Source of the DNA: Victivallis vadensis
Lineage (GTDB): Bacteria; Verrucomicrobiota; Lentisphaeria; Victivallales; GWF2-50-93
Assembly: GCA_945883805.1 (NCBI GenBank)
Contig: CAMCYE010000007.1
Span: forward strand, 9,260-73,259
DNA length: 64,000 nt
Direction of reading: 5' to 3'
The notes under the pieces were generated by a model that saw only the letters and a list, made by a program, of their open reading frames with translations, searched no databases and was not told the origin of the DNA. This document shows positions 1,615 through 63,860 of this stretch, one piece after another (the first letter of the stretch is position 1; every line of letters begins with the position of its first letter). Both the position numbers and the translations under genes were made by a program.

Positions 1615-1766
1615 TTGAGTTTTTTCCTGCTGAATTTAAATTAGGTGGCCAAAGCGCCATAATTTTAAGTAACACAGGCTTCAGCCTGTTGTTAAATTAA
1701 TCTGGAAACACAAGGGAGATTGCAGGCTGAAGCCCGCATTACTCATATTGAAATTCCTTTACGTTA
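1615..1766 (-). repeat. Mosaic intergenic element, minus orientation: B box, 13-bp hairpin, A module
   Basis: Read on the minus strand. ACGTAAAGGAATTTCAAT lies at 1764..1747. Stem GGGCTTCAGCCTG/CAGGCTGAAGCCT uses 1735..1723 and 1688..1676. ATGGCGCTTTGGCCACCTAATTTAAA lies at about 1662..1636. The histidine kinase ATG follows at 1614. Confidence 0.75.
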
Positions 1767-2667
1767 AATTCGGATGACATAGAGCCCCGTAAATGACAAT
1801 TCCCGCATAACTTACTGTGTGGGAATAATCACCGGTAAGTTCGCCGCTGGTGGTGTATTCCACAAGTTCAGGAGTGAACGCCGAACCTGAACAGGCGGAT
1901 GTTTTTTCAATGGTTTTCAGAAGAACCTTTATCGGATTGGCACCGCATATTGTCGCACCTGTTTCCTCTACGTAATCGGAAAATCCGGTGTAGTCGAGCC
2001 TGATGATTTTTTTCACGGCTCCGGTGTCCAGATCCCTTAGTTTTGCAGGTATGTTTTCCGTGAATGGCCTGTATCCGAACTGACGTCCGAAATGTGTGAA
2101 GTCAGAGCTTATAACCCATAGGGTTTTACTGTCCATGAAAGGATACAGCACTTCCGAAACGTCTCCGGCAATTTCATGATCGACATGACCGCATACGATA
2201 GGCACAATCGGCAGTTCCGGGAAGAGAACCTGCAGAAAAGGCAGTTCCACTTCCAGGGAATGTTCCGGAATATGCACCTCGTCCATTTCATTGATCCAGC
2301 GGCATTTCTTCGAGAGGATTTCATTTAGCGGCTTCTTGTCAATCGGAATGCAGCCTAGCGGAGTTCTGTATGCGTCGTGGGAACTTAGGGCCAATCCTTT
2401 GAAGTGGAAACTGTGCGAGGGTGAAATGACAACGGCTCTTTTGTATTCAAAGTTTCCGGCAAGCTTCAGGGTTTTGGCGGCGGTCTTTCCGGAGTAGGCA
2501 TACCCTGCATGCGGCACTATCACCGCCTGGACATATCTTCCGCAGGACGGAGAGGCGGATTTCCCGTCAGCAAGCATTTGTTCAATTTGGAGTCTCAACC
2601 TTTCAGGGTCGGACTCGTAAAACTGTCCTGCCACCGCCGGTTCCCTGACAGAATTTTCCGCTTTCAT
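1759..2667 (-). CDS. MEMO1-family protein (AmmeMemoRadiSam system protein B-like)
   Basis: 302 aa. N-terminal 'REPAVAGQFYESDPERL', 'VIVPHAGYAYSGKTAA' and 'EHSLEVELPFLQ' are typical Memo/AmrB motifs. No AMMECR1 or AmrS radical SAM partner is adjacent. Confidence 0.75.
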   Translation of the reverse strand: MKAENSVREPAVAGQFYESDPERLRLQIEQMLADGKSASPSCGRYVQAVIVPHAGYAYSGKTAAKTLKLAGNFEYKRAVVISPSHSFHFKGLALSSHDAYRTPLGCIPIDKKPLNEILSKKCRWINEMDEVHIPEHSLEVELPFLQVLFPELPIVPIVCGHVDHEIAGDVSEVLYPFMDSKTLWVISSDFTHFGRQFGYRPFTENIPAKLRDLDTGAVKKIIRLDYTGFSDYVEETGATICGANPIKVLLKTIEKTSACSGSAFTPELVEYTTSGELTGDYSHTVSYAGIVIYGALCHPNLT

Positions 2668-5032: not shown

Positions 5033-5055
5033 GCATATCGGGCTCTGCCTGATTG

Positions 5056-7623
5056 TCAGTTGGTGCTGTTGTTGCTTCCGCCCATGGACTGTCTGGCGGT
5101 AATTTTTGCCGAGGGCGCGGCTGTAAGGGTGAACATGATTCCGGCAGTCTGTTTGTTGACTTTATCGCCTTTGTCGTCGTTATTCTGCCTGAGTCCGTAT
5201 TCAAGCGCCAGTTCCCAGCAGTGGAAGGTTCTTATCACCCGGATCATGCTGTTTCCGAGCATGTGGTTGTCGACATCGTAGGCGATCTGGAATTCACCCC
5301 TGAGTTTATCCATGATGGGGAATTGGAGTCTGAATGCGACATCCTGGAATTTGCTGTAATTGCTGACGAATGCTGATCCTGACATGATGTCGGTAAGGGA
5401 GCTGCCCATCGAATAGGTGCTCCTCTCGGTGAAATTCTTCTGATAGTTGTAGATAAATGACACTTTCCACTCCTCGGTAATGTCGTACGTCAGCCCAACG
5501 ATAAATTTGTTTATGTTGAAGGAACCGGTGTCTATGAGAAGCTCGGACATAAGATGCAGGTCTGTGAAGGGGCTGACTTCAAGTTTTGTCCCGAAATCGC
5601 CCAGGTTTTTGAAATCCTTGCCGTCCATGTCCTTCTCTTTTGAAAAATGGTAGTCAAAATAATTTTCAATGGAGGCCCACGTGTAAATTTCCTCCTTGTT
5701 GTAATCGCCCCTACGGGTCTGCAGGCGGTTTTTCAATCCAAGCCTCACGAAATTTTGTTCATTGATCCGGTCGATATCGTCAAAATAATAGATCTTGTCG
5801 CGGTTCAGGGTGGGGTCAGGAATGAAATTATAATTGACATACGGAACCATCACATGCCGGATTCCGTCCATATCCCAGAACGCGCTTTTGACATTATTCC
5901 ACGTCCTGTATATCTTCGTGTTCATTTCAAGTCCGGTTTCGGCTGCGAAACGCAGTTTTCCGTCGCCTCTGCTGTCGTAGTTCACCACATCTCCGCCCAC
6001 CTGGGTTCCCTGCGGATTGTCGACGGTGAACATTTCATTCAGGTCGTTCTCGCTGATTTTTGTCTTTGAAGTGTTGGAATAATAAGTCAGCCTGACCCCG
6101 GCGCGTGGAATTATGTTTAGCCAGTCAAGTTTGAACGGGTAATAAAACATGTGCAAGCTGTCAAACCTGACGCTGTGATAATCCTTCGGGTCAACTCCGT
6201 TGCCCATATCCCTGTCCTGGTCATAATCGCGCCATTTCATCCTGAAATTGCCGAGGCTTGTTTCACTCTGGTAGTTGATGTTGCTGAAAAGTTCCTGCCT
6301 CTGCACATCCAACCTGACTTCGGGCAGTCGCTCGACTTCCGTGTTGAAGCTGTTTATGCGCTGGCGGTAGTCGACTGATGCCGTGAAACGGTTGAACTGG
6401 TAATCGAGGTTCGCAAAAGTCGGTGGCTGCGGATCGTCATTGTAACGGTCCCTGAAGAAGTCGTAAAGGAAATTGAAATCGCTCAGTTTTTCAATCTGAC
6501 CCCTGAAGTCCATCCTGGGCGTGATATGGGTAATGTTATTGAGTTTCAGGTCATAGCGGCCATGGTCAATGTCAAAGCGCTCGCCGCTGGCTGCGGTTTT
6601 GTAGGGTTGCTGGTCGTAAAGGCCGTATGCAAACCCGTATGTCTGCGATTTTTCGGTTGCCGCCTTGACCTCGATACCGCCTCCTGGACCGCGGCTGGAA
6701 TAGTAATCGGCGAGGATGCTTGCTTCAACATTTGGATAATCCCACACCCTGAAAGTCTTTTTCGTCTGGACGAAGAAACCCCAGTCATGGTCGCTTCCGA
6801 ATTTCACATGCCACCCGAGTCCGGAGGAATCGCTGGGCTTGTGCAGGACAGGCAACCAGAGGATTGGCACATCGCCGATGTACATGTAACAGCCGTAGGC
6901 CCATATGTCGAACCTGCCAATGTCTCTGCTTCCCGGATTTGTCAGATCGGCAAATCCCTGGCTGGGGATGAGCCGGACTTTGTTTGCCGCGATTGAATAA
7001 TGCTCATGACCTTCTTGCATATATTCACAGGAAGTCAGCTGGGCGTTCATGACCGTTATCGTACCGTCGGTTTCTCTTTCGGCACTTTCTCCCTTGATGT
7101 AGAACAGTCCGGCCATTCCCTCGTATTTTCCGAGATCAAATATCCCGGTGGTCAGATTCCCAGTGGCCTTCTCACCTTTCCAGTCTACGGTCCTCGTGAC
7201 AGTGCTCACAAGAACCTTCTGTCTTCCGGAAGGTTTTGTGACATATCCGTCGACGGTGACTTTGACCTTCGGATCCTCCTGCAATTTTTTCAATTCGGTT
7301 GAGTCAAGTTCGGCGTGTGAATTGATATATCTGTGGAGTTTGACGTTCCCAATCGCTTCAACATCCCTGGAGGACATATTGACTATGATTTTGTCGGCGG
7401 TCATGAAGATGTCTTTGTAGCGGAGGTAGACATTGCCGGTTCCGACAACATTGTTTCCTATGAATTCAAGTTTGTCGGCGTTTGTCTGTATATCGTTTTT
7501 CGTGATGCCGGTGCCGGAAAAAAGGTCGCCCCCTGCGGCATACGCTTGCCGGGACGAGAAATGAAGTGCCAGTGCAAAAAGCACAGCGAAGCAAATGGTT
7601 GTTATTTTAGCATGTTTCAGCAA
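5056..7623 (-). CDS. lptD: LPS-assembly outer membrane protein LptD-like (OstA N-domain plus large beta-barrel)
   Basis: 855 aa. Signal peptide 'CFAVLFALALHFSSRQAYA'. OstA-like 'ADKLEFIGNNVVGTGNVYLRYKDIFMTADKIIVNMSSRDVEAIGNVKL'. The remainder is long, aromatic-rich and shows an alternating pattern. Confidence 0.6.
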   Translation of the reverse strand: MLKHAKITTICFAVLFALALHFSSRQAYAAGGDLFSGTGITKNDIQTNADKLEFIGNNVVGTGNVYLRYKDIFMTADKIIVNMSSRDVEAIGNVKLHRYINSHAELDSTELKKLQEDPKVKVTVDGYVTKPSGRQKVLVSTVTRTVDWKGEKATGNLTTGIFDLGKYEGMAGLFYIKGESAERETDGTITVMNAQLTSCEYMQEGHEHYSIAANKVRLIPSQGFADLTNPGSRDIGRFDIWAYGCYMYIGDVPILWLPVLHKPSDSSGLGWHVKFGSDHDWGFFVQTKKTFRVWDYPNVEASILADYYSSRGPGGGIEVKAATEKSQTYGFAYGLYDQQPYKTAASGERFDIDHGRYDLKLNNITHITPRMDFRGQIEKLSDFNFLYDFFRDRYNDDPQPPTFANLDYQFNRFTASVDYRQRINSFNTEVERLPEVRLDVQRQELFSNINYQSETSLGNFRMKWRDYDQDRDMGNGVDPKDYHSVRFDSLHMFYYPFKLDWLNIIPRAGVRLTYYSNTSKTKISENDLNEMFTVDNPQGTQVGGDVVNYDSRGDGKLRFAAETGLEMNTKIYRTWNNVKSAFWDMDGIRHVMVPYVNYNFIPDPTLNRDKIYYFDDIDRINEQNFVRLGLKNRLQTRRGDYNKEEIYTWASIENYFDYHFSKEKDMDGKDFKNLGDFGTKLEVSPFTDLHLMSELLIDTGSFNINKFIVGLTYDITEEWKVSFIYNYQKNFTERSTYSMGSSLTDIMSGSAFVSNYSKFQDVAFRLQFPIMDKLRGEFQIAYDVDNHMLGNSMIRVIRTFHCWELALEYGLRQNNDDKGDKVNKQTAGIMFTLTAAPSAKITARQSMGGSNNSTN

Positions 7624-8927: not shown

Positions 8928-9020
8928 AAATCGTTCAGGAAATTTTATTTTGACAGGATTACAGGATAAACTGGATTAAAAAAGAGGTTTGTCAAGTGCG
9001 GAGGGCAAATGCGGATCGGT

Positions 9021-9049
9021 CGGATATTCCGTGTTGGCTATAGGATATT
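9021..9049 (+). repeat. Module G copy: GGATATTCCGTGTTGGCTATAGGATATTC
   Basis: Near-identical to 37382..37410 and 47398..47426 (GGATATTCCGTGTTGGATATTGGATATTC). Confidence 0.8.
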
Positions 9050-9123
9050 CAGTTTTTTCAATCGAGTTACCTGCTTGATCTGAGAAAGAGCTTTTTTTAC
9101 CGGTCCAGAAATTGAGAGGCATC

Positions 9124-11148
9124 TTATTTGACGATATCCTCTTTGTCCTTGTCCGAGACAAATCCGTCGTCTCCTTCGTCTACTCTCTCCAGTGCCAGGT
9201 CGCGGAACAGCCTGATGGCGTCACGGATGCCGCCGATGGCGAGCCACACGGTGGAAAGCGTGCCCAGGAAAACGGAAAATGCGACAAGTTTCCACCACCA
9301 TATCTCGCTCCAGACCGCATCGGTTATCCAGTCAGTGGTGAGGCAGAGGATGGTGACAATAATGAACAGGAACCAAAATAGCATGGATTTCAGGAATGTT
9401 GCCCAGGCGATGCACTTGTCGAGACGTGTAAACGCCTTGGAAATGCCGATGAGTTTATGCCAGTTGAAACGCGCATTCAGGGACGCCGCCTCATCCGGGG
9501 CGACAACGTCCTGCTTAACCGCATAAACACCGCGGTGGAGCAGTTTGTCCATGTTGTAAACCCGTTTGCCGAGCAAAGAAACCACAACATAGCTGGACAG
9601 GGATGTAATCATCGCGATGAAGAAAATTATCTGACCGTTGATCGGGAATTTTGCCTTGCTGGCGACCAGCCACGCCGAATCCGGCCATATTTGCAGCAAT
9701 GCGGGCGATAGGCAGCTTGGCCACAGCTGTTGCACCAGGATTCCGCCGAATGCCAGGATTGTGCCGACAGTAAGAGCTGTATACGCCGCCGCGGTTGTGC
9801 CCCGCTTCCAATAAAGTCCTCCTATTATTACAGAACCGGCTCCGCCAAGATAAATCGCCCCTGTAAGGGCAAAATACATCACGATAAAATCTTTCAGCGG
9901 GAACAGTAGGCTGAATGTAAAACCGAAAAGCGCTACGCCGCAGATTGACAGGCGGAGAATCAGCATGTGATGTTTCGGCTCAATCGGTTTATTGTGTAAA
10001 GGCATATATACGTCCTGGATGAAAATTGTCCCCCAGGCGTGCAGATATGTGTCGTCGCAGCTGATGGCGCACGCAACGATTATGGAGGCGAAAAGCCCCA
10101 TCAGTCCAACCGGGAGAATGTGGGTGAGGAATATCGGAACCGTCATCTGGCTTTGAATCATGGGATCGGTGATTTTTGCGATATCAGCAAGTATCGGAGC
10201 GGCGATGCCGCTGAATGACGGCAGATGCAGGACTGCATAGGCTGCCAGTGGAATCATGAGCATGCACAGTCCGCTGGCAACGGTTCTCCAACTGCTGAGG
10301 ATTCCCGACATCACAGCTTCGTGTGGGGTTTTGGCCGAAGAGTTGTATCCGGAATTGCCTTGCCAGGCGCGGGTGTTTAAAATGGAGGAGAACACCCCGA
10401 TCAGGAAATACCAGATATTGAAGTCCGCCACTTTTGAAGTTTTAAAAGGATTTATCATCGACTGGCCGTCCGGCGCGATCTGCAGGCCCGCTATAATGTC
10501 GTTCCATCCGAAACAATAGAGAAGATAGAACATAAGGAAAAGGAAGAGCATCATCAGGAGAATGCCTTGGAAGAAGTCGGTCACAATGATGCTAACCTGT
10601 CCGCCGACACAGGCAATGAACAAGGCGATTGACAGGTAGGTAAGCATGACCGGCGCGAGCGTCGGCAAATTCATGCCCATCAGGGTAAACTCATTTGGAA
10701 GTCCGAAGAAATAGATGATGAATCGGGCGGTTACAGCAGGGAAAATTCCGTAATTTAAGATGCCGGAGAGCCAGCAGAGTGTTCCGGCGTAGAAACGGAA
10801 GGAGCGGCTGTAGCGTATCTCGAAGAACTGGGCTAGCGTCAGGGAGCGCGTCTGCCGGAACCGGAAAATAACGAATCCAGTAAGGGCGATGAACACTCCG
10901 ACTGGAATGGACATCATTGCCCACCATTGAGTCGGCAATCCAGCCTTGTAGATCATTTCCCATGTCGCGATCATTGATATTGCCCCGCCGAAACCGCCGG
11001 CTACAGCGATCAGATAACGGCCGGCCAAACGGTTGGCCGCCAGAAAATCCGCCACGCTACGGATCCTGTTCCTGACGTAAAGCGTGATTATAATCAGGGT
11101 CGACAGCAAGATTCCGACAATGGTCCAATCCACCCAGTGTAAATTCAT
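9124..11148 (-). CDS. Sodium:solute symporter family transporter with extra C-terminal TM region
   Basis: 674 aa and polytopic. 'DFLAANRLAGRYLIAVAGGFGGAISMIATWEMIYKAGL' is SSF-like. Last gene downstream of the glycan-like operon. Confidence 0.75.
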   Translation of the reverse strand: MNLHWVDWTIVGILLSTLIIITLYVRNRIRSVADFLAANRLAGRYLIAVAGGFGGAISMIATWEMIYKAGLPTQWWAMMSIPVGVFIALTGFVIFRFRQTRSLTLAQFFEIRYSRSFRFYAGTLCWLSGILNYGIFPAVTARFIIYFFGLPNEFTLMGMNLPTLAPVMLTYLSIALFIACVGGQVSIIVTDFFQGILLMMLFLFLMFYLLYCFGWNDIIAGLQIAPDGQSMINPFKTSKVADFNIWYFLIGVFSSILNTRAWQGNSGYNSSAKTPHEAVMSGILSSWRTVASGLCMLMIPLAAYAVLHLPSFSGIAAPILADIAKITDPMIQSQMTVPIFLTHILPVGLMGLFASIIVACAISCDDTYLHAWGTIFIQDVYMPLHNKPIEPKHHMLILRLSICGVALFGFTFSLLFPLKDFIVMYFALTGAIYLGGAGSVIIGGLYWKRGTTAAAYTALTVGTILAFGGILVQQLWPSCLSPALLQIWPDSAWLVASKAKFPINGQIIFFIAMITSLSSYVVVSLLGKRVYNMDKLLHRGVYAVKQDVVAPDEAASLNARFNWHKLIGISKAFTRLDKCIAWATFLKSMLFWFLFIIVTILCLTTDWITDAVWSEIWWWKLVAFSVFLGTLSTVWLAIGGIRDAIRLFRDLALERVDEGDDGFVSDKDKEDIVK

Positions 11149-31881: not shown

Positions 31882-32021
31882 GATAATCCAAATTGAATAT
31901 CCAATATCCAACACTCAATTTCCAATTTCCATCGGACACTTAACTTGGATATTGGATATTTCCGCCGTGGCGGATTGTATATTGGACATTCTGAGTTGCC
32001 GCTTTTTGCCACCAAGTTGGA
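31882..32021. repeat. Word-stutter hairpin, TCCGCCGTGGCGGA palindrome and degenerate A module (miaA-lspA gap)
   Basis: GAATATCCAATATCCAACA (31895..31913) pairs with TTGGATATTGGATATT (31945..31960). Palindrome at 31961..31974. GAGTTGCCGCTTTTTGCCACCAA at about 31992..32015. Confidence 0.75.
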
Positions 32022-37222: not shown

Positions 37223-37595
37223 TGGAAGAAGTGCGAAAGTGCGGGGGTTGGGGAGAATTTGAACATCGAACATTCGCCATGGCGGAAACATCCAACATCG
37301 AATTTAGATGACGGGGAGACGTGGCAGGTGATCTGAGGTCAGAAAGAGAATTTAATTCAGGAAAATCCTAACTTGGACATTGGATATTCCGTGTTGGATA
37401 TTGGATATTCAGAGTTGCGGCCCCTGGTTGCCTAATTAAACGCTAAGGAATTTCAAAGTTATTATTAAAAAACTAAAAATAACGCGGCAACAGAGTGCCG
37501 CGGCTACAGCAGTGGATTTATTGTAGCCACGTCACTCTGTTGACGTGCTCTGTTTATTAGAGTTGCGACTTACAGTCGCCTAATTTAAAACATCG
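37223..37595 (+). repeat. Mosaic repeat block between pyrB and pyrC (stutter words, F palindrome, G, A-B junction, C hairpin, A)
   Basis: GAACATCGAACAT-TCGCCATGGCGGA-AACATCCAACATCGAAT (37261..37305). G at 37382..37410. A at 37411..37440 fused to B at 37441..37460. C hairpin at 37484..37547. A at 37559..37590. ATG at 37596. Confidence 0.85.
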
Positions 37596-38903
37596 ATGGG
37601 GCTTCATACCATGAAAACAGATTATATTTTGAAAAACGGACGAGTGATTGATCCCTCCCGCTCCATTGACCGGAAGATGGACATAGGCGTAAGCGACGGG
37701 AAAATAGTCAGCCCTTCAAAAATAAGGGGGGCCAAGGTGATTGACCTTGGCGGACTGGTTGTCGCACCCGGATTTATTGACATGCATGTTCATCTGCGTC
37801 AGCCGGGACGTTCCGACAAGGAATCCATAAAGACTGGTACGATGGCCGCCGCCGCCGGAGGATTCACTTCAATTCTCGCCATGCCAAATACGAGTCCGCT
37901 TTCGGATAATCCCGGGACAATTGAGCTTGTCAAGCGCGCCGCCCAGGAAGACGGAGTGGTCAAGGTTCTGCCTTGCGGGTGCATATCTAAAAATCAGGAA
38001 GGCAAGGAGATGACCGGAATCGGCGGTCTGAAAAAAGCCGGAGTTGTCGCCCTGTCGGATGACGGAAAATGTGTCCAGAACCATGAGCTCATGCGGCATG
38101 TCCTTGAATATTCAAAGTCGTTCGGACTTCCGATTCTCGATCACTGCGAGGATGAAAAGCTTGGCGCAGGCGGAGTCATGCATGAAGGCTATTGGTCGGT
38201 TGTTCTCGGATTGAGGGGAATTCCCGCCGCAACAGAGGAACTGATGGTTGCCCGCGACATAATCCTGGCTGAAATGATCGGATGGAAAATCCATATTCAG
38301 CATGTCAGCACATCTGGAAGTGTCCGTATGATAAAGGATGCCAGAAAAAGAAAGATCCCCGTTTCTGCCGAGGTCACCCCTCACCACATTGCGCTCACGG
38401 ATGAGGAGATAAAACATTTTGACACCAATTATAAGATGAATCCGCCCCTGCGTTCGGAAGATCACCGCAAAGCCCTGATAAGCGGACTCAGGGATGGGAC
38501 GATCACCGTCATCGCCACGGATCATGCGCCACATACGGAAACGGAGAAGCTTGTGGAGTTCGATTACGCGCCTTTCGGGATAATCGGGCTTGAAACTGCA
38601 TTGCCTGTCTGTCTTACAGAACTGTATCACAAAAAATTTCTGACCCTCTCTGAACTTGTTTCAAAGTTCACGGCAGGTCCTGCGGAAGTGCTCGGGCTTC
38701 AGACAGGATTGGCCGAAGGTTCCGTTGCGGATATCACCGTATTGGATCCCGATTTGAAACATAGGATTGATGCTTCCTCATTCTTCTCCAAATCCAGGAA
38801 CACGCCCTTCGACGGATGTGAAGTCCACGGAAAAGCGATGGCAACGATCGTCGACGGAAAATTCGTTTACAGCCTGCTGGACGGGGTAAAAGGGATGATT
38901 TAA
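37596..38903 (+). CDS. pyrC: Dihydroorotase
   Basis: 'PGFIDMHVHLRQPG' and 'ATDHAPH' motifs; 435 aa. The start could be the second ATG at 37611. Confidence 0.85.
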   Translation: MGLHTMKTDYILKNGRVIDPSRSIDRKMDIGVSDGKIVSPSKIRGAKVIDLGGLVVAPGFIDMHVHLRQPGRSDKESIKTGTMAAAAGGFTSILAMPNTSPLSDNPGTIELVKRAAQEDGVVKVLPCGCISKNQEGKEMTGIGGLKKAGVVALSDDGKCVQNHELMRHVLEYSKSFGLPILDHCEDEKLGAGGVMHEGYWSVVLGLRGIPAATEELMVARDIILAEMIGWKIHIQHVSTSGSVRMIKDARKRKIPVSAEVTPHHIALTDEEIKHFDTNYKMNPPLRSEDHRKALISGLRDGTITVIATDHAPHTETEKLVEFDYAPFGIIGLETALPVCLTELYHKKFLTLSELVSKFTAGPAEVLGLQTGLAEGSVADITVLDPDLKHRIDASSFFSKSRNTPFDGCEVHGKAMATIVDGKFVYSLLDGVKGMI

Positions 38904-39100
38904 TCGTATAGGAATTTCAAAGTTGGAACACCGGCATCTTTGTCAGTATTCTTAATTAAAAGAGTATGGTACAGGCGTCTCGCCTGTTTCTATTCTTTCT
39001 TGAAGAACAGGCGAGACGCCTGTACCACATTATGACAGATGCCACTAAGATGGTGGCGTTCCAAAAGAGTTGCGGCCCTTGGCCGCTTAATTTAAATCCG
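38904..39100 (+). repeat. Mosaic element after pyrC: B box, GGAACACC...GGCGTTCC closing stem, 21-bp D hairpin, A module
   Basis: B at 38905..38924. E stem 38925..38932 with 39055..39062. D hairpin TGGTACAGGCGTCTCGCCTGT/ACAGGCGAGACGCCTGTACCA within 38966..39030. A at 39066..39096. Confidence 0.85.
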
Positions 39101-43224: not shown

Positions 43225-45901
<2,677 letters not shown>

Positions 45902-47286: not shown

Positions 47287-47478
47287 CGGAAAACGAGGCA
47301 CAAAGGCGCAAAGGTGCAGAGGCACAAAGTGAAGAGGGATGGGTAAAGTAACTCGGGCATTCCTGCCCGAGACAGAATCAGCAAGTCCTTAATCATTGGA
47401 TATTCCGTGTTGGATATTGGATATTCGTTTTGCGACTTAGCACTTAAAACTTAACACTTAAAACTGTGAAATAAAACC
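47287..47478 (+). repeat. Mosaic repeat block between lpxA and the aconitase-family gene
   Basis: CACAAAG-type stutter at 47295..47338. Hairpin CTCGGGCA-TTCC-TGCCCGAG at 47352..47371. G at 47398..47426. Degenerate A (GTTTTGCGACTTAGCACTTAAAAC) at about 47427..47450. CACTTAAAAC stutter to about 47470. Confidence 0.75.
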
Positions 47479-49431
47479 ATGGCCAAGGGAACGGTAATAC
47501 AGAAAATACTTGACACCCACCATCTGTCTGGGGGAAAAAATCCAGGACAGCCGGTTTCGATAAGAATTGATCAGACGCTCACCCAGGATGCAACAGGCAC
47601 GATGGCATATCTTGAACTTGAGGCGATGGGTGTTGACAGGGTCAGGGCTGAGCTCTCAGTATCTTATGTTGACCACAATATGATGCAGAACGGTCCCGAG
47701 AACCAGAACGACCATTTATATCTTCAGTCGGTTGCTGCGGCAAAGGGAGTCTATTTTTCCAGGCCGGGCAATGGAATCTGCCATCAGGTTCACCTGGAGA
47801 GGTTCGGGGTTCCCGGCAAGACTCTCTTGGGTTCGGATTCACACACGCCCACAGGGGGCGGAGTCGGCATGATGGCAATCGGGGCGGGTGGACTTGACGT
47901 GGCGCTCGCCATGGCGGGCAAGCCTTTTCGCATGTCTTATCCGAAAATTATCGGAGTGAACCTTTCCGGTCATCTTAGACCGTGGCTGTCCGCAAAAGAC
48001 CTCATATTGAAAATGCTGAGCATCTTGACGACAAAAGGGAATGTCGGATGCATGGTTGAATATTTTGGTTCCGGCGTCGAATCCCTTTCCGTTCCGGAAC
48101 GCGCGACAATTACAAACATGGGCGCAGAACTCGGAGTCACAACCTCTGTTTTTCCATCTGACGGACGCACGAAAAGTTTTCTTGAAGCCCAGGGCAGGGG
48201 TGCGTCGTGGATGGAACTCAGGGCCGATGCAGATGCCGAATATGACAGGGTGATCGAGATTGACCTGAAGAAACTTGTTCCGATGGCGGCCGCCCCCTCA
48301 AGCCCGGACAATATTAAAACACTCGCCGAAATCGGCGAAATACCAGTTCATCAGGTGATTATAGGTTCATGTACGAACAGCTCCTATCAGGATCTCATGC
48401 TCGTCGCAAAACTGCTCAAGAACAGGAAGATAGCAAAGCATGTCTCCCTTTCAATCTCCCCGGGAAGCCGACAGGTTTTGCAGATGATTTCCGAAAACGG
48501 CGCTCTTGCGGACATGATTTCGGCAGGGGCCAGAATCCTCGAAACATCTTGCGGCGCCTGTATTGGACAGGGTATGAGCCCCGCGAACGATGCCGTTACT
48601 CTCCGCACCTTTAACCGCAATTTTCCGGGGCGCACGGGAACAAAAGGGGACAAGTCATATCTTGTGAGTCCGGCGGTCGCCACCGCTGCCGCGCTTACCG
48701 GTAAGTTCACAGATCCCAGACTGCTGGGAATAAAATTTCCAAGAATAAATGAGGCGAAGAGTTTTCTTGTCGACAATGATATGATTATTCCGCCTATGCC
48801 TGCGGAAGACGCTTTAAAAGTTGAAATCATCAGGAAGCCGACAATTGGTAAACCCCCAGTGAACTCTCCGCTTCCTGAAAATATAAACGGCGAAATCATT
48901 TTAAAAGTCGGCGACAAAATAACAACTGATCATATTATGCCCGCAGGCATCCATCTGAAACACCGCAGCAATATCCCCGAATATTCGAAAGTTGTTTTTG
49001 AATGCTTCAGCGAACCGGGCAAACCGACATTCGCCCAGCATGCCACCGCCCTCAGGGATTCCGGTAAACACGGGATAATTGTAGCCCGCGAGAGTTATGG
49101 ACAAGGATCTTCCCGCGAACATGCCGCAATCTGCCCCATGTATCTCGGAGTTAAAGCTGTTGTCGCCATCAGCATTGAAAGAATCCATGCCGCAAACCTT
49201 GTGAACTTCGGAATAGTTCCGCTTCTTTTTGCGAATCCCGCGGATTATGATCGGATTGCGCAGGGAGATTTGCTGAATATATGCGAAATTCGCAGACAGC
49301 TTGAAGTCGGAAAACTTGTGAAAGCGGAAATTGTCAGGGTGAATGGAGAGAAGATGGAAATAGAGCTTAGTCACGGCCTGTCAGAGGAAGATATTTCCAT
49401 CATACTTCCCGGAGGCTGCTTGAACTGCTGA
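47479..49431 (+). CDS. Aconitase-family hydratase, fused large plus small domains (putative aconitate hydratase, ~650-aa type)
   Basis: 'IDQTLTQDATGTMAYLE', 'GSDSHTPTGG' and 'GSCTNSSYQDL' ... 'CGACIGQG' Fe-S ligand motifs. Swivel domain 'YGQGSSREHAA'. Confidence 0.75.
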   Translation: MAKGTVIQKILDTHHLSGGKNPGQPVSIRIDQTLTQDATGTMAYLELEAMGVDRVRAELSVSYVDHNMMQNGPENQNDHLYLQSVAAAKGVYFSRPGNGICHQVHLERFGVPGKTLLGSDSHTPTGGGVGMMAIGAGGLDVALAMAGKPFRMSYPKIIGVNLSGHLRPWLSAKDLILKMLSILTTKGNVGCMVEYFGSGVESLSVPERATITNMGAELGVTTSVFPSDGRTKSFLEAQGRGASWMELRADADAEYDRVIEIDLKKLVPMAAAPSSPDNIKTLAEIGEIPVHQVIIGSCTNSSYQDLMLVAKLLKNRKIAKHVSLSISPGSRQVLQMISENGALADMISAGARILETSCGACIGQGMSPANDAVTLRTFNRNFPGRTGTKGDKSYLVSPAVATAAALTGKFTDPRLLGIKFPRINEAKSFLVDNDMIIPPMPAEDALKVEIIRKPTIGKPPVNSPLPENINGEIILKVGDKITTDHIMPAGIHLKHRSNIPEYSKVVFECFSEPGKPTFAQHATALRDSGKHGIIVARESYGQGSSREHAAICPMYLGVKAVVAISIERIHAANLVNFGIVPLLFANPADYDRIAQGDLLNICEIRRQLEVGKLVKAEIVRVNGEKMEIELSHGLSEEDISIILPGGCLNC

Positions 49432-49951
49432 AGATAGGGCGATTTCTCCGAAAGCACCGCCGGACGGACGGCTATCCCTACCTTGACGTTAAGGAATTTA
49501 AAAGAGATGAACATCCAACATCCAACGTTGAACATCGAACATTGAATTAAAACTCAATTCATTCTAAGTTGGATGTTTCCGCCGTGGCGGATTGAATGTT
49601 CGAAGTTCAGATTATTTAAAAGTTGCGGCCCTTGGCCGCCTAATTCAAGCGTATAGGAAATTGTATTTTAAGGAACGCCGGTCTCCAGACCGGCTTTAAT
49701 GGTAAATGACAAAAGAGCCGAACTGGAGTTCGGCGTTCCATAAAGAGTCCCGGCGGAGCCGGTTAAGTTCACGTTAAGGAATTTCAAAGTTTATGAATAT
49801 TAAGACAGCCTAAAGGCTGGACTCCAAATTTTGGAGTTCACACTTTAGTGTGTCTTTATTTTAAACAAGTTGCGGCCTTTGACCATCTAATTCAATCAGA
49901 ACTCCAGACAGGAATGTCTGGGTTGCTTAAACATATGGGGATTTTTTATTT
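49432..49951 (+). repeat. Array of A-B junction repeats alternating with hairpin inserts (acn-metG gap)
   Basis: Junction units at 49452..49506 (diverged), 49619..49673 and 49744..49791, plus a terminal A at 49866..49897. Insert 1 carries stutter words and TCCGCCGTGGCGGA (49578..49591). Insert 2 is GGAACGCC...GGCGTTCC (49672..49739). Insert 3 has three small hairpins (49806..49852). Confidence 0.85.
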
Positions 49952-51877
49952 ATGGGACAGGACACTTTCTACGTTACGACCCCGATTTACTATGTGAACG
50001 ACAAACCGCACATAGGCCATGCATATACGACAATCCTTGCGGATGTCCTATCCCGTTATCACCGCCTCCTTGGCGATCCGACTTTTTTCCTCACGGGTAC
50101 CGATGAGCACGGACAGAAAGTCCAGAAGGCCGCTGTTGCAAACAAGATGACTCCACAGGAACAGTGCGACACCACTGTGACAAGATTCCAGGAGCTTTGG
50201 AAAAAGCTTGAAATAACGCATGATGATTTCATACGGACCACTGAAGACCGCCATAAGAATGTAGTCAGGACAATCCTTCAGGATCTTTATGACAGGGGCG
50301 AGGTTTACAAGGCTGAATATTCAGGCCATTACTGCACCCCCTGCGAAAGATTTTTCTCGAAAAAGGATCTTGTGGATGAAAAGCTCTGTCCTGATTGCAA
50401 ACGACCAACCGACGAGATAATTGAGTCAAACTATTTCTTTAAAATGGGAAAATACCAGTCATGGCTTATTGATCACATCCAGTCGCATCCTGAGTTCATA
50501 CAGCCAGACTTCCGCCGCAATGAGACACTCGGGTTCCTTCGCAAACCTCTGGAGGATCTCTGCATTTCACGCCCGAAAAAACGCCTTGCATGGGGAATAG
50601 AACTTCCGTTCGACAAGGAATATGTGTGCTATGTCTGGTTTGACGCCCTGATCAATTATATAACAGGAATAGGATATGGGCAGGACGCTGCGAAATTCGC
50701 AAAATGGTGGCCAGCCTCCTACCACCTCATCGGAAAGGATATTCTCACCACGCATACCGTCTACTGGCCGACAATGCTGAAGGCGATGGGAATAGAACAG
50801 CCGAAGACGATATATGCGCACGGCTGGTGGCTGATTGGTTCGGATAAGATGAGCAAGTCCACCGGCAATGCCGTCAATCCGATCGATGTGGCTGAAAAAT
50901 ACGGGGTTGACGCGTTCCGCTATTTCCTCATGTCGGAAATGTCGCTGGGGAACGACGCTTCATTCAGCGAGGAGATTTTCATCACTCGGTATAACAGCAA
51001 TCTCGCGAACGATCTTGGAAATCTTCTGAGCCGCGTCGTAAAGATGATCGCCAAGGAAGCGGGCGGAATAATTCCCGCTCCAGTTGAATCGGCGCAGACT
51101 GAATATGAAAAGGAACTCCGGGAAACTGTTCTATCCGCAGTTTTTGAAATGGAACCGGCCATAACCGGAATGAAGCTTGACCGCGGGCTCGAACAGATTA
51201 TGAACGCCATACGTGCGGCAAACCGCTATATGGAACAGACAGCCCCGTGGAAACTCGCAAAGGAGAAGAATACCGACCGTCTCAGTACGGTCCTATATAC
51301 CGCCGCGGAGTCACTGAGGATAATTTCCGGTCTTCTCTATCCTGTAATGCCGGGCAAAATGTGCGAAATCCGCAAAGCCATAGGGCTTCCTGAGACAGGG
51401 ATGGAAATATTCGAGTTGAAGACTTGGGGAAAACTAAGTCCCGGTCTCAAGGTTTCCGATATCGGCTCTCTTTTTCCGCGGATAGAAGTAAGCAAGGATG
51501 ATGCGTCAAAATCTGCGAAATCCGCAGAGACTGTTGCCGTTGCAGCCGAAGACATAATTGTCATTGATGACTTCAGCAGGATCAAGCTCAAAACGGCAAA
51601 GGTTTTGGAAGCTGAAAAAGTCGAAGGCGCGGACAAGCTTCTCCGCCTCCAGATTGATGTCGGCGGACAGAAGCGTCAGCTGGTCGCCGGGATCGCGCTG
51701 TTCTACAAGCCGGAAGAAGTTGTCGGAAGGACAATCATCATTGTTGCCAACCTGAAACCTGCGAAAATACGTGGAATCGAATCCTGCGGAATGCTTCTCG
51801 CCGCCAAGGACGGGAAGACTCTCAAGCTCATCACAGTCGACGGCGGTGAATTTCCGTCCGGCGCATCCGTGGGATGA
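49952..51877 (+). CDS. metG: Methionine--tRNA ligase with C-terminal tRNA-binding (EMAP-like) domain
   Basis: 'PIYYVNDKPHIGHAYT' (HIGH), 'KMSKSTGN' (KMSKS), zinc knuckle 'CTPCERF...CPDC'. C-terminal 'KTAKVLEAEKVEGADKLLRLQIDVG'. Confidence 0.9.
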   Translation: MGQDTFYVTTPIYYVNDKPHIGHAYTTILADVLSRYHRLLGDPTFFLTGTDEHGQKVQKAAVANKMTPQEQCDTTVTRFQELWKKLEITHDDFIRTTEDRHKNVVRTILQDLYDRGEVYKAEYSGHYCTPCERFFSKKDLVDEKLCPDCKRPTDEIIESNYFFKMGKYQSWLIDHIQSHPEFIQPDFRRNETLGFLRKPLEDLCISRPKKRLAWGIELPFDKEYVCYVWFDALINYITGIGYGQDAAKFAKWWPASYHLIGKDILTTHTVYWPTMLKAMGIEQPKTIYAHGWWLIGSDKMSKSTGNAVNPIDVAEKYGVDAFRYFLMSEMSLGNDASFSEEIFITRYNSNLANDLGNLLSRVVKMIAKEAGGIIPAPVESAQTEYEKELRETVLSAVFEMEPAITGMKLDRGLEQIMNAIRAANRYMEQTAPWKLAKEKNTDRLSTVLYTAAESLRIISGLLYPVMPGKMCEIRKAIGLPETGMEIFELKTWGKLSPGLKVSDIGSLFPRIEVSKDDASKSAKSAETVAVAAEDIIVIDDFSRIKLKTAKVLEAEKVEGADKLLRLQIDVGGQKRQLVAGIALFYKPEEVVGRTIIIVANLKPAKIRGIESCGMLLAAKDGKTLKLITVDGGEFPSGASVG

Positions 51878-56451: not shown

Positions 56452-56528
56452 GGCGGCTTAGCTCAGTTGGTTAGAGCGTCGGAATCATAATCCGCAGGTC
56501 CTCGGTTCAAATCCGAGAGCCGCCACCA
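56452..56528 (+). tRNA. tRNA with CAT anticodon (elongator Met or lysidine-modified Ile2), CCA encoded
   Basis: Manual cloverleaf. Acceptor GGCGGCT/AGCCGCC. D arm GCTC-AGTTGGTTA-GAGC. Anticodon arm TCGGA-ATCATAA-TCCGC. Variable loop AGGTC. T arm CTCGG-TTCAAAT-CCGAG. Ends ACCA. The 1:72 pair is G-C, so it is not an initiator. Confidence 0.85.
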
Positions 56529-56588
56529 GATTTCTTCCCCCGTTTTCCGAACCCGGATGAAAATTAATTATTTCTTTCATATTGGTTC

Positions 56589-56616
56589 TTGCAAATTTCC
56601 GGCGTTGGAGTATTTT
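56589..56616 (+). promoter_or_regulatory. Putative sigma70-like promoter of tRNA-Asp: TTGCAA-16 nt-TATTTT
   Basis: TTGCAA at 56589..56594 and TATTTT at 56611..56616. The tRNA starts at 56635. The same CTTGCAA word precedes the first tRNA. Confidence 0.35.
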
Positions 56617-56634
56617 TCAAGCCTCCCAATAATT

Positions 56635-56712
56635 GGGGGCGTAGCTCAATTGGTTTAGAGCGCTGCCCTGTCACGGCAGAGGTTGCGGGTTCGAGCCCCG
56701 TCGCTCCCGCCA
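56635..56712 (+). tRNA. tRNA-Asp (GTC), CCA encoded
   Basis: Manual cloverleaf. Acceptor GGGGGCG/CGCTCCC (one G.T pair). D arm GCTC-AATTGGTTTA-GAGC. Anticodon arm CTGCC-CTGTCAC-GGCAG. T arm GCGGG-TTCGAGC-CCCGT. Discriminator G plus CCA. Confidence 0.9.
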
Positions 56713-56731: not shown

Positions 56732-57010
56732 ATGGCAGGCCATAGGAGCAATAATGTGTGGTATGTATATGTACTTCGTAGTCAAAAAGATGTTAGAACA
56801 TACATCGGCTCAACAAATGACCTGAAGCGCAGATTCAAAGAACATAATTGTGGTCTTGTCATGGCTACGACCCACAGAACTCCTCTCATTCTCGAAGCTT
56901 ATGTTGGCTTCACTGCGTGTTCGATAAGGTTGCGGGGCATGCCTGTTTTCGGGGTTTTGAAGTCAAACCAGAAGTTTACAGGCTTGTCGTGCCCGATCCC
57001 ATGCATGTAA
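56732..57010 (+). CDS. GIY-YIG domain protein, apparently 3'-truncated or diverged
   Basis: 'WYVYVLRSQKDVRTYIGSTNDLKRRFKEHNCG...HRTPLILEAYVGF' matches the first ~60 aa of small GIY-YIG proteins. The usual C-terminal helix is missing. The last 112 nt overlap the convergent radical SAM gene. Confidence 0.5.
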   Translation: MAGHRSNNVWYVYVLRSQKDVRTYIGSTNDLKRRFKEHNCGLVMATTHRTPLILEAYVGFTACSIRLRGMPVFGVLKSNQKFTGLSCPIPCM

Positions 57011-62008: not shown

Positions 62009-62152
62009 AGCGCGGCAACGGAGTGCCACGGCTACAGTCCGGATTTTTTGTAGCCACGGCACTCTGTTGCCGTGATCTTTGATATTTGACTGTGGGAATG
62101 CCTCCGTACTCCCGAACTTCCTTATCTTTAAATTAGGCGGCCAAAGACTTGC
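62009..62152. repeat. C-hairpin copy 2 (plus orientation) and A module (minus orientation) in the deoR/isomerase convergent gap
   Basis: C2 at 62012..62074, GCGGCAACGGAGTGCCACGGCTACAG...TGTAGCCACGGCACTCTGTTGCCGTG, compared with C1 at 37484..37547. On the minus strand 62152..62128 reads GCAAGTCTTTGGCCGCCTAATTTAA. Confidence 0.8.
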
Positions 62153-63519
62153 TCCGCATCTACGGATATTCCAAGAATTGAGCAGAGCGCTTCCAGCTTT
62201 GCCCGGTTGTCGCCGTAGGAAATAATGTAGTGCTGGCTCATCACCTTCTGGATGAAGTCCTCCACGGGATTGTCAAAAATTATTTCCAGGCTTGGCAGTT
62301 GCGGGGCAGGTGGTGCCCAGCCGGCCTCCTCCCATTTGACCGGAGTTCGTGCGGTTCCGGTCATGATGTGCATGGCATATACTCCTTTTGAATATCCCAG
62401 CCGGCAGATTGTGACTTTTCCCGTTTTCAGTTTCGACACGTTCAGGAGGCCCTCGCCGAAATCGCCGAACGCGTTCGGCATTACTGTTACCTTGCCGTCG
62501 ACAATTTCCGCAGGAACATAGTCGGGCACCCCCATCAGCGCACCGTCTTTCATGAATTCGTAAAATTCCAGATATGCCGCAACTTGTCCGGTGAGATATT
62601 TTACGATGAGCTGCGTCACCGCGCCAAGGCTGTCGTTTTCCGGAATTGAGCAGATGTCCATTTCATCATGCAAGAGCGTCAGACTTCCCGCAGGAGCGAA
62701 TTTCATCAGTTTCTTGACACCGTCAACATCGCAGAAGGAGAATCCCTGATATTTTCGGTCATGGATTTTAGCTTTCAACGCGAGGAAAAGACGAACGGAA
62801 TTTTCCACGGTCCCCGGTCGCGGTTCTTTTACAAAATGCCATCTTTTTTTCAGGGCCGAGGAGATTGTCGCGATTTCCTTCGCTTTGACTTTCTCCATCA
62901 GTTGGGCAATCTCAAGCAGGTCGAAATGCTCTATTTCAGGACCTATTTGGGCTTTCAGGGAAACGCCGTCGTAGAGAGTGCCGTACAGTCGCATGTCACG
63001 ATAGCCTGCCATACCGATTTTGGCCGTTTTGAGTAGAGAAGCGGCCCGTGCGGCTTCCGCATAATTTATTATCTCTGCGATTCTCGGTTTTTCCCCGCGG
63101 TAATTGACAACGTATTTGAAATCATATCCCATGTCCTCCATCGGCTTGCGCAGGGCTGTGGTTCCCGCCTGATCGGCGGTGGTGACAAAACGGTCACCTT
63201 CCTGCCAGCCGCTGAGCCCCCACAGGATCATCGGCTTGTGTTTGAACGGTTCAATAACGCTGAAGACGGCCCAGGACGGTATCCACCCGGCGACACAGAT
63301 AATCAGCAGGTCAAAATCATTCCTGGCAAGCTCCGTCCTTGCCCGTGCCGCCTCTTTCCCGTCAGGATCGTCGCAGACAACTGCGGTTGTGAACAGTTTC
63401 AATCCCCTCTTTTCAAGCAATTTTGCGGATTCCGCACAACGCCCGACAATAAATTCCTTCGGTGTATTGACTTCCCCGAACCCGACAAATCCGGCTCTGA
63501 TTTCCCTTAACCTGTTCAT
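62128..63519 (-). CDS. L-fucose/L-arabinose isomerase-family sugar isomerase (tentative)
   Basis: 463 aa. N-terminus 'IRAGFVGFGEVNTPKEF' and overall size and pattern resemble FucI/AraA-like isomerases. The last five codons plus the stop lie in repeat module A. Confidence 0.5.
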   Translation of the reverse strand: MNRLREIRAGFVGFGEVNTPKEFIVGRCAESAKLLEKRGLKLFTTAVVCDDPDGKEAARARTELARNDFDLLIICVAGWIPSWAVFSVIEPFKHKPMILWGLSGWQEGDRFVTTADQAGTTALRKPMEDMGYDFKYVVNYRGEKPRIAEIINYAEAARAASLLKTAKIGMAGYRDMRLYGTLYDGVSLKAQIGPEIEHFDLLEIAQLMEKVKAKEIATISSALKKRWHFVKEPRPGTVENSVRLFLALKAKIHDRKYQGFSFCDVDGVKKLMKFAPAGSLTLLHDEMDICSIPENDSLGAVTQLIVKYLTGQVAAYLEFYEFMKDGALMGVPDYVPAEIVDGKVTVMPNAFGDFGEGLLNVSKLKTGKVTICRLGYSKGVYAMHIMTGTARTPVKWEEAGWAPPAPQLPSLEIIFDNPVEDFIQKVMSQHYIISYGDNRAKLEALCSILGISVDAEQVFGRLI

Positions 63520-63659: not shown

Positions 63660-63860
63660 TTATCGGAACGCCAGCACCTTGCTGGCATATGCTTTAATGT
63701 GATACAGGCATCTCGCCTGTTCTTATTCTTCCTTAAAAAACACAGGCGAGACGCCTGTACCACATTCTTTTATCAACCAAGCGGATAAAGATCGCCACAC
63801 AGGATATCCGACAATCCATTAATTCGCCTTCAGTGAATTAATCCAATAATCCACCATCAA
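63660..63860. repeat. E-D composite copy 2 plus AATCCA-word tract
   Basis: GGAACGCC-AGCACCTTGCTGGC from 63666. D2 hairpin at 63699..63765 (compare D1 at 38966..39030; the right arm ACAGGCGAGACGCCTGTACCACAT is identical). GGATATCCGACAATCCATTAATTC...GAATTAATCCAATAATCCACC at 63801..63858. Confidence 0.8.

Follow-up and report, generated by a model that had tools for sequence, protein, structure and literature searches.

The IS91 family of insertion sequences (IS) and its mechanism of transposition are known already, and its members have been studied mainly as rare full-length carriers of resistance or virulence genes. In IS91, terIS lies upstream of the transposase gene tnpA and has a single subterminal palindrome beside the cleavage site, and oriIS lies downstream and abuts a CTTG, GTTC or GTCC target with a conserved T at position 2 (PMC13181058). 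Insertion does not duplicate the target, transposition often runs past terIS (read-through, or one-ended transposition), a mini-IS consisting of the two ends can be mobilised in trans, and the bottom strand is the active one (PMC13181058). The left end of the family has a conserved 17-nt GC-rich potential stem-loop, and IS801 derivatives of 229-679 nt transpose (PMC3189936). Here, we have analysed a stretch of 64,000 nt of Victivallis vadensis (contig CAMCYE010000007.1, positions 9,260 to 73,259 of the forward strand), hereafter the window, which belongs to an 86-kb metagenome contig (ENA ERZ27280308) and in which a 520-nt gap separates the open reading frame (ORF) of an aconitase, acn (47479-49431), from that of MetG (49952-51877). 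The original prediction, made from the letters alone, saw in this gap no credible ORF and a modular, dispersed system of hairpin-bearing repeats arranged in an array, which it could not match to a described family. The gap indeed holds no credible ORF and the array is real, but a described family can be named: the two repeated modules, A and B, are the termini of 1.6-kb elements encoding IS91-family transposases. We estimate a probability of about 0.85 that the gap consists of three head-to-tail non-autonomous IS91-family elements (49487-49648, 49649-49771 and 49772-49895), and give the same estimate for the elements of this type having been inserted at each other's terIS tails.

The array and its surroundings can be read from left to right on the plus strand. 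Ahead of it lies what may be the remnant of an earlier end of the terIS type (49452..49486), read from the sequence as an imperfect GC-rich palindrome followed by the tail CTACCTTGA, which agrees with the consensus YTAAKTNNA found to the left of other B copies (see below) and provides the CTTG-A that abuts element 1. Element 1 (49487..49648, 162 nt) has the structure B1-X1-A1. Its B1 module (CGTTAAGGAATTTAAAAGA, 49487-49505) is followed by the core X1 (49506-49617), composed of GAACATC “stutter” words, the hairpin TCCGCCGTGGCGGA at 49578-49591 and the inverse words, and then by an A1 module (49618-49648) that reads AAAAGTT-GCGGCC-CTT-GGCCGC-CTAATTCAA and scores 49.3 bits with the covariance model of the A end. 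X1 belongs to the largest cluster of cores, with 22 copies. Element 2 (49649..49771, 123 nt) carries a second type of ends, B2 (GCGTATAGGAAATTGTATTTTAAG, 49649-49672) and A2 (AAGAGT-CCCGGC-GGA-GCCGG-TTAAGTTCA, 49743-49771, 30.7 bits with the variant stem CCGGC/GCCGG), which enclose a hairpin core, X2 (49672-49739, inverted repeat I2). Element 3 (49772..49895, 124 nt) returns to the first type, with a B1 module (49772-49790), a core X3 of three nested mini-hairpins (49791-49864, inverted repeat I1) and a decayed A1 end (GCGGCCTTTGACCAT, 49865-49895, 21.9 bits). The remaining nucleotides before the MetG ORF (49896..49951) lie outside the elements and are the native metG leader, with a hairpin CCAGAC-AGGAAT-GTCTGG at 49904-49921.

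The repeats lie where the original prediction had placed them. The 38-nt A copy at 49611-49648 recurs in the window at 49858, 39058, 37403 and 37551, and a 28-nt B copy at 49479, 49764, 37433 and 38897; a 28-nt A pattern gives 2 matches in the window against 0.00 expected from shuffles, far above chance. The first copy (49452..49506) had been called diverged, which is right for its B half; its A half is present only as the tail-like sequence at the end of the possible relic and was missed by covariance model R1 at E<=10. The copy of A expected at the far end is there, as the decayed A of element 3. The inserts were said to be strongly self-complementary, and so they are: inverted repeats I1-I4 are found in the gap, all three cores are palindromic in this sense, and the 409-nt array taken as single-stranded DNA folds at -73.8 kcal/mol, against -42.0 +/- 4.1 for shuffled sequences (z = -7.75). 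No Rfam family covers the array: at the gathering threshold of Rfam 15 the whole window contains two tRNAs only, and a permissive search of the gap returned only generic hairpin matches to miRNA models, far below threshold.

The unit of repetition is not the one first supposed. The original prediction had taken A fused to B as the recurring unit, separated by inserts, and this is out of phase with the elements. A tolerant pattern search for A and B in the window and 93 related loci (657 kb) gave 135 A and 115 B modules, 250 in all; the chance level was one match in five shuffles of 30 loci. In 83 cases the module next downstream of B is an A of the same strand, at a distance of 52-377 nt. The reverse order, A then B, occurs 39 times, with exactly 3 nt between the two search patterns in all but one case. 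Hence, the A-B joint is the seam between head-to-tail elements, and the repeat unit is B-X-A. There are 47 solitary B-X-A elements, and adjacent modules at most 450 nt apart are on the same strand in 134 of 134 cases. We also considered A-B as a mobile unit or landing pad into which hairpins had been inserted, and rejected it on the excess of B-to-A over A-B cases and the presence of a single core-less B-A junction, in locus L024.

The three parts of the unit differ in how they vary. The 5′ end, B, has 19 nt and reads CGTWWAGGAATTTCAAAGT. The core X varies in sequence but is always a long, imperfect palindrome; by sequence, 17 clusters of cores can be told apart among the 82 complete elements, many of these clusters being built of 7-8-nt stutter words and their complements. 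A, the 3′ end, consists of A[AG]AGTT, a 6-bp GC stem with an NNT loop, and then exactly 9 nt, CTAATTNAA; 46 copies next to a B keep this distance of 9 nt between hairpin and element end, and no fewer than 6 different stems occur among them. The stems include GCGGCC, GCGGCT/AGCCGC, GCGACC/GGTCGC, CCGGC/GCCGG and CGCGGGTC. The hairpin covaries: in the covariance model of 111 distinct copies, 98.2% of cells are paired, compensatory double changes affect 3 of the 6 pairs, and the observed score was reached by 0 of 500 shuffles. G·T pairs are found 10 times and A·C pairs 4 times, too few to infer strand-specific selection. At two loci (L017 187-239 and L049 960-1013), the loop of the A hairpin holds a GC-rich insertion of about 22 nt, CTCTTGCCCCGTCGGATGACTGGGG, a nested small repeat.

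The second pair of ends, B2 (TCGTATAGGAAATTGTATTT) and A2 (CCGGC-GRA-GCCGG-TTAAGTYCA), occurs jointly, in the middle element of the gap and also in L041. This locus is non-orthologous and comes from another metagenome-assembled genome (MAG), and its positions 4180-4615 show the same order of end types as window 49487-49895: B1-GAACATC core-A1, B2-core-A2, B1-core-A1. The middle core of L041 is unlike that of the window in spite of the common order, and transposition of the array as one unit is therefore not supported. B2-type elements, including the autonomous IS, have been found only behind A1-type tails, and B1 elements often behind A2 tails. This order may reflect cross-targeting between the two end types.

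The boundaries of the elements are sharp. On the right, conservation stops directly after CTAATTNAA. On the left, the motif YTAAKTNNA precedes B even in the 58 copies that have no canonical A before them, where position -8 is T in 79%, position -7 is A in 74%, position -4 is T in 88% and position -1 is A in 84% of them. The tetranucleotides at -5..-2 are TTAA (11), GTTC (6), TTTA (6), CTTG (5), GTCC (4) and TTCA (4), so that the motif is longer than a tetranucleotide, mostly AT-rich, and has an invariant A between the tetranucleotide and B. Since the 3′ tail of an element reproduces its own apparent target, the arrays have a fixed phase. No target-site duplication was found when the 3-6 nt on both sides of the 47 solitary elements were compared, as the left and right flanks differ. 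Nor are there terminal inverted repeats, the B end and the reverse complement of A having in common only a weak TTAA..TTA..GG resemblance.

These same ends delimit elements that encode transposases. On a 2-kb contig (L081), B2 is followed by two ORFs on the opposite strand and then by A2. One ORF encodes a 74-aa zinc-finger protein matching Zn_Tnp_IS91 (PF14319, 3.4e-17) and the other a 274-aa protein with the motif HMHILL matching Y2_Tnp (PF04986, 2.8e-31). A protein 92% identical to this transposase is present on 19 contigs with differing gene contexts. Five copies of the corresponding element (IS#1, about 1635 nt, L180-L184) are 99.6-99.7% identical to one another. They always start with TCGTATAGGAAATTGTATTTATTGAGG, which follows without a gap the CTAATTNAA tail of an A end that differs from copy to copy, and end with AAAGTCCCGGCGGTAGCCGGTTAATTTAA, next to which a B1 element stands in both copies read there (L181 and L184). 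Both ends of element 2 of the gap are 88-89% identical to the termini of IS#1 in L184, and the core family of X3 also adjoins IS#1 in that contig. A second IS encodes a fused transposase of 400 aa (L180 1909-3111), only 28% identical to the first type, and has an A1 hairpin at its 3′ end (L180) and B1 at its 5′ end (L185). Its subterminal 3′ sequence also ends L025, a Victivallis MAG contig, and starts L082, and L030 appears to run into its 5′ end. As is usual in the IS91 family, these full-length IS lack both terminal inverted repeats and target-site duplications. In both IS, tnpA starts beside A, ends beside B, and is read opposite to the B-to-A direction; the A hairpin lies about 50-200 nt upstream of the start of tnpA in L180, L081 and L184. 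As this is the arrangement of IS91, B is the equivalent of oriIS and A that of terIS, and the B-to-A strand corresponds to the active bottom strand of IS91.

The coding content of IS#1 has features of its own. In L180-L184 (e.g., L184 204-1683), a 131-aa Zn_Tnp_IS91 ORF overlaps the 274-aa Y2_Tnp ORF by 25 nt in the -1 frame, and a cysteine-rich 95-aa ORF without any Pfam match follows the latter. The overlap is present in every near-identical copy, and more distant relatives have one fused protein of about 400-430 aa. This layout suggests either programmed frameshifting or a two-protein system, together with an accessory gene. In IS91, the accessory gene orf121 is located upstream.

How could gene-less elements with such ends spread? 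We infer the answer from the established mechanism of the family. An IS91-type HUH (Y2) transposase, supplied in trans by a full-length element with the same ends elsewhere, would nick the B-to-A strand between YTAAKTNNA and B, and peel off or replicate this strand as far as the end marked by the A hairpin. The single strand would then be inserted 3′ of another YTAAKTNNA site without target duplication. Because every element ends in a target-like site, the A tails of resident elements could be preferred landing pads, and arrays would grow head to tail in a fixed phase. When A is read through, as in one-ended transposition, unrelated palindromes might be captured between the same ends, which is a likely route to the diversity of cores. 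The array may also affect the expression of acn or metG.

Several points weigh against this interpretation. There is no transposase gene in the 64-kb window, and a tblastn search of the window and the 93 loci matches L081 only; no autonomous copy was found among the B...A pairs 0.4-6 kb apart in these loci. The IS with B and A ends are thus documented for a related MAG and for unassigned metagenome contigs, and their presence in this genome would have to be presumed; L081 is binned to a Syntrophaceae MAG, probably by mis-binning. No similarity is detectable between the cores and the inner parts of the two IS, so that simple deletion of an IS does not account for the miniature elements, which would rather have arisen by capture. 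The B end has no obvious subterminal palindrome, unlike the oriIS of IS91 and IS801, which has one or two. The tetranucleotide of the left flank is offset from B by the invariant A, which makes the exact position of cleavage uncertain, and the last 30 nt, at the 3′ end, of the L185 contig look chimeric. Finally, transposition itself is deduced from sequence comparisons.

Mobility has left indirect traces, one of them the strict strand polarity of the modules. Pairs of elements 97-100% identical lie between unrelated flanks in the same MAG, and such near-identical copies at unrelated sites are the mark of recent mobility. The gap between acn and metG turns over as well, its length in relatives varying between 82 and 605 nt. 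It measures 520 nt in the window, 605 nt in a relative with a 99% identical MetG, represented by a 9.75-kb contig of JGI sample 3300059473, 407 nt in a Victivallis MAG (L097), 134 nt in L095 and L100 (MetG 92% identical), 125 nt in L098 (93%), 86 nt in P0004 (93%) and 82 nt in L099 (90%). The gap of L097 has in common with the window only the last A end, i.e., that of element 3, and the metG leader hairpin, the leader being kept there at 9946-10000; those of L095, L098 and L100 contain a stutter-word palindrome only. In the relatives compared at the nucleotide level, the flanking genes are 80-87% identical to those of the window, and a scan of metagenomes yielded a single close locus. Gene content near the array differs too: the sulfatase gene of the window (44264-45901) is absent from L095 and L100, and in L097 a 1141-aa PAS/dCache gene (4193-7618) stands between an lpxA-like gene and acn.

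The element family is confined to a few MAGs of the Victivallales, the order to which the homologues of its MetG also assign the window. A scan with GTTGCGGCCNNTGGCCGCNTAATT of one genome per species, covering 185,579 species, gave 93 stretches. Among the 80 listed, 49 are in one MAG of an “uncultured Victivallis sp.” (CAZION01), 20 in the Victivallales MAG JBAZRS01, 9 in three other Lentisphaeria/Victivallales MAGs and 2 on small contigs of unrelated MAGs. Many of the stretches are at contig ends, which fits repeats numerous enough to break assemblies. Two small contigs, L016 (CAZTQI010000062, in a “Saccharibacteria” MAG) and L081 (CAITLA010000061, in the “Syntrophaceae” MAG mentioned above), carry Victivallales-type elements. 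Their assignment probably results from the mis-binning of repeat-bounded contigs, and horizontal spread of the IS may be an alternative.

Three other explanations of the array deserve consideration. The one that survives best, although very unlikely, is that the modules are cis-regulatory devices of the host, such as terminators, mRNA-stabilising hairpins, promoters or a structured RNA, selected between acn and metG. The stability of the array fold is in line with this idea. The minus strand of A also consists of a GC hairpin followed by a T-rich run, and among six terminator-like sites five are on the minus strand, and the hairpins of A2 and A1 account for two of these. In many cases a start codon follows the A end at a distance of 6-34 nt, or the A end covers the stop codon of a convergent gene. 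Yet the array is not conserved among relatives with a 90-93% identical MetG, their gaps of 82-134 nt being filled by other sequences; Rfam has no match, and identical copies are present at unrelated loci. The orientation of the elements relative to co-directional neighbouring genes is random (26 same, 22 opposite). A promoter role for A or B was rejected, since the spacing of the hexamers does not fit and promoter-like matches are no commoner than in shuffles. Individual copies may still have been exapted secondarily. Most of the modules (238 of 250) are outside ORFs of at least 100 aa, and several mark the very end of one: ORF 1759-2667 (minus strand) stops at a TAA inside the B of a minus-strand element (1636..1763), ORF 37596-38903 stops at a TAA abutting the B of element 38905..39095, ORF 62128-63519 (minus strand) owes its final five codons (FGRLI) and its stop to half an A module, and an ORF of L041 stops inside B (4180-4186). 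It seems that genes tolerate an insertion at their very end, where it supplies the stop codon.

It is more improbable still, to the point of being hardly credible, that the modules are repetitive extragenic palindromes (REP) assembled into bacterial interspersed mosaic elements (BIMEs) or REPINs and spread by a domesticated Y1 transposase of the IS200/IS605 type, the REP-associated tyrosine transposase (RAYT). The original prediction had used the term BIME-like, which is suitable as an analogy only. In favour of it, the elements lie between genes, bear hairpins, are modular and occur in many copies within one lineage, and the lack of target duplications and terminal inverted repeats and the fixed 9 nt between hairpin and end would fit as well, these being traits also of peel-and-paste elements. 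However, BIMEs and REPINs consist of inverted REP pairs, and not one of the 134 adjacent module pairs is inverted. The conserved hairpin is at the 3′ end only, both termini occur on full-length elements encoding Y2_Tnp and Zn_Tnp_IS91 rather than a Y1 enzyme, and no RAYT was seen, though the genomes were not exhaustively searched. Models based on IS200/IS605 elements, on the palindrome-associated transposable elements (PATEs) derived from them or on RAYTs were rejected for the same presence of both ends on Y2-encoding elements (L081), and a conserved hairpin is lacking at B, since the palindrome next to it differs between core families. Classical DDE-type miniature inverted-repeat transposable elements, or an integron- or CRISPR-like cassette array with a repeat of about 50 nt made of A and B, can practically be dismissed: the joints are regularly spaced in the gap with “inserts” of 70-112 nt between them and L024 has one core-less junction, but inverted repeats and target duplications are missing, the 47 solitary elements outnumber the tandem joints and solo A-B in unique DNA is not seen as a class, the would-be spacers are repeated families in 17 clusters, the likeness between repeats of the window is only 63-86%, the arrays examined have neither a cas nor an integrase gene beside them (which are flanked by aconitase, MetG and TsaD), and no CRISPR family reaches the Rfam threshold in the window.

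The ends recur elsewhere in the window. The original prediction counted four other loci; further A and B copies do exist, and we find four additional A ends, distributed over three loci, as well as a relic. On the plus strand, the A1 end of a 5′-truncated element (37410..37440, 36.9 bits), with a GGATATT-word core from about 37371 that matches the 3′ half of the family of L022, L026 and L030, is followed directly by a complete element (37441..37588). The latter has B1 at 37441-37459, a long core hairpin GCGGCAACAGAGTGCCGCGGCTACA and an A1 variant at 37558-37588 (39.9 bits) with the compensated stem GCGACT/AGTCGC. A complete solitary element, also on the plus strand (38905..39095), has B1 at 38905-38923, A1 at 39065-39095 (46.9 bits) and a core with a long hairpin, GGAACACC...ACAGGCGTCTCGCCTGT...GGCGTTCC, with a minimum free energy of -87 kcal/mol. 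On the minus strand are the complete element 1636..1763, with B1 at 1763-1745 (CGTAAAGGAATTTCAATAT), a core of the CAGGCTGAAGCCTG type and an A variant at 1667-1636 (16 bits), and the relic, a 3′ half of an A module (62128..62148, TTTGGCCGCCTAATTTAA, 13.8 bits).

Some of the palindromes found as cores are also present without ends. Two long GC-rich hairpins occur twice each, 84-89% identical, one copy inside a B-X-A element and the other alone between genes: the hairpin at 37485-37551 recurs at 62009-62078 and that at 38967-39031 recurs at 63700-63766. One free copy is placed as a bidirectional terminator would be, with convergent genes on its two sides. Palindromes of stutter words (GGATATT, GAACATC, CACAAAG, CCAGAAT) without B or A ends are found in the window at 9018-9050, 31952-31994, 37259-37303, 47394-47426, 2700-2730 and 47290-47330, as well as in L095 (3370-3475) and L098 (9880-9985). 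These free palindromes may be an independent mobile family or the source of captured cores. Elsewhere in the window, 56452-56709 and 56760-56898 hold two tRNA genes (Rfam, 69.7 and 67.9 bits) and then a short reading frame whose product resembles a GIY-YIG nuclease (…YIGSTNDLKRRFKEHN…).

As far as the searchable literature shows, no high-copy, multi-core, self-targeting miniature derivatives of the IS91 type have been described in bacteria, and nothing relevant was found on repeats in Victivallales. The elements constitute a natural data set, with over 100 ends, numerous families of cores and transposases of two lineages, from which the smallest functional oriIS and terIS and the rule of target choice of rolling-circle transposases could be worked out. 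They also have practical consequences for genomics. They account for contigs of Victivallales MAGs breaking at the same 30-nt sequences, for the mis-binning of small repeat-bearing contigs and for intergenic regions that, in relatives with a 92-99% identical MetG, differ by hundreds of bases.

The comparison with known systems brings out both the kinship and the peculiarity of these elements. PATEs are, like them, non-coding derivatives of HUH elements with subterminal hairpins that insert 3′ of a short target without duplicating it, but they have related hairpins at both ends and depend on a Y1 TnpA, whereas here the conserved hairpin is at the 3′ end only and the enzyme is a Y2 transposase. 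The BIMEs, REPs and REPINs of proteobacteria are similarly extragenic, modular, hairpin-forming and high-copy, and form arrays between genes; they differ in their inverted REP pairs and Y1 RAYT from the elements described here, co-oriented throughout and associated with a Y2 enzyme of the IS91 type.

The IS91 family (IS91, IS801, IS1294/IS1294b, ISCR) is much closer. As in the elements of this study, its two ends are unlike, without inverted repeats, and no target is duplicated. In IS91 a tetranucleotide target abuts the ori end; the longer motif beside B may play this part here, and GTTC, CTTG and GTCC, with their T at position 2, are all present in it. In both, a single GC-rich subterminal palindrome stands beside the ter cleavage site, tnpA (Y2_Tnp and Zn_Tnp_IS91) is read from the ter side towards the ori side, and short derivatives consisting of the ends are found. 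There are also clear differences. The commonest target and tail are AT-rich here (TTAA, TTTA or TTCA, followed by A, within YTAAKTNNA), and the ori end B lacks an evident palindrome, unlike those of IS91 and IS801. The described IS801 miniatures are few and are contiguous fragments of the IS, in contrast to the high-copy families with at least 17 unrelated palindromic cores found here. In addition, and unlike the rest of the family, these elements stack head to tail on each other's ter tails, and their ends are common to two transposase lineages that are only 28% identical.

A further parallel is in eukaryotes. Helitrons belong to rolling-circle HUH (Y2) relatives of these elements, and their non-autonomous copies, just as the elements here, begin with a short conserved sequence, carry a GC-rich hairpin some 10 nt from the 3′ terminus, lack terminal inverted repeats and target duplications, and have an AT-rich target. 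Helitrons differ in having a transposase with a fused Pif1-type helicase and 5′-TC...CTRR-3′ termini. The enzyme here is of the bacterial IS91 type, of about 400 aa, and the likeness is thus one of architecture, not of membership. We tentatively propose, as a possibility somewhat short of even odds when all its points are taken together, that in a single bacterial lineage gene-less elements of the IS91 family form a community like that of Helitrons. For mobility, such an element would need no more than its short ori end and hairpin-marked ter end, and palindromes captured by read-through of terIS would have founded at least 17 families. The ter tail would be the preferred landing site, so that phased arrays could assemble themselves at gene boundaries, and two transposase lineages, in spite of their distance, would serve one end architecture. 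Some copies may have been exapted as stop codons or as insulators made of a reverse-strand hairpin and T-run. Such a community could be a bacterial model for the capture of sequences by Helitron-like elements: here the IS91 family behaves like the Helitrons of eukaryotes, in that gene-less copies far exceed the autonomous ones, unrelated sequences are found between constant ends and insertions occur in tandem.

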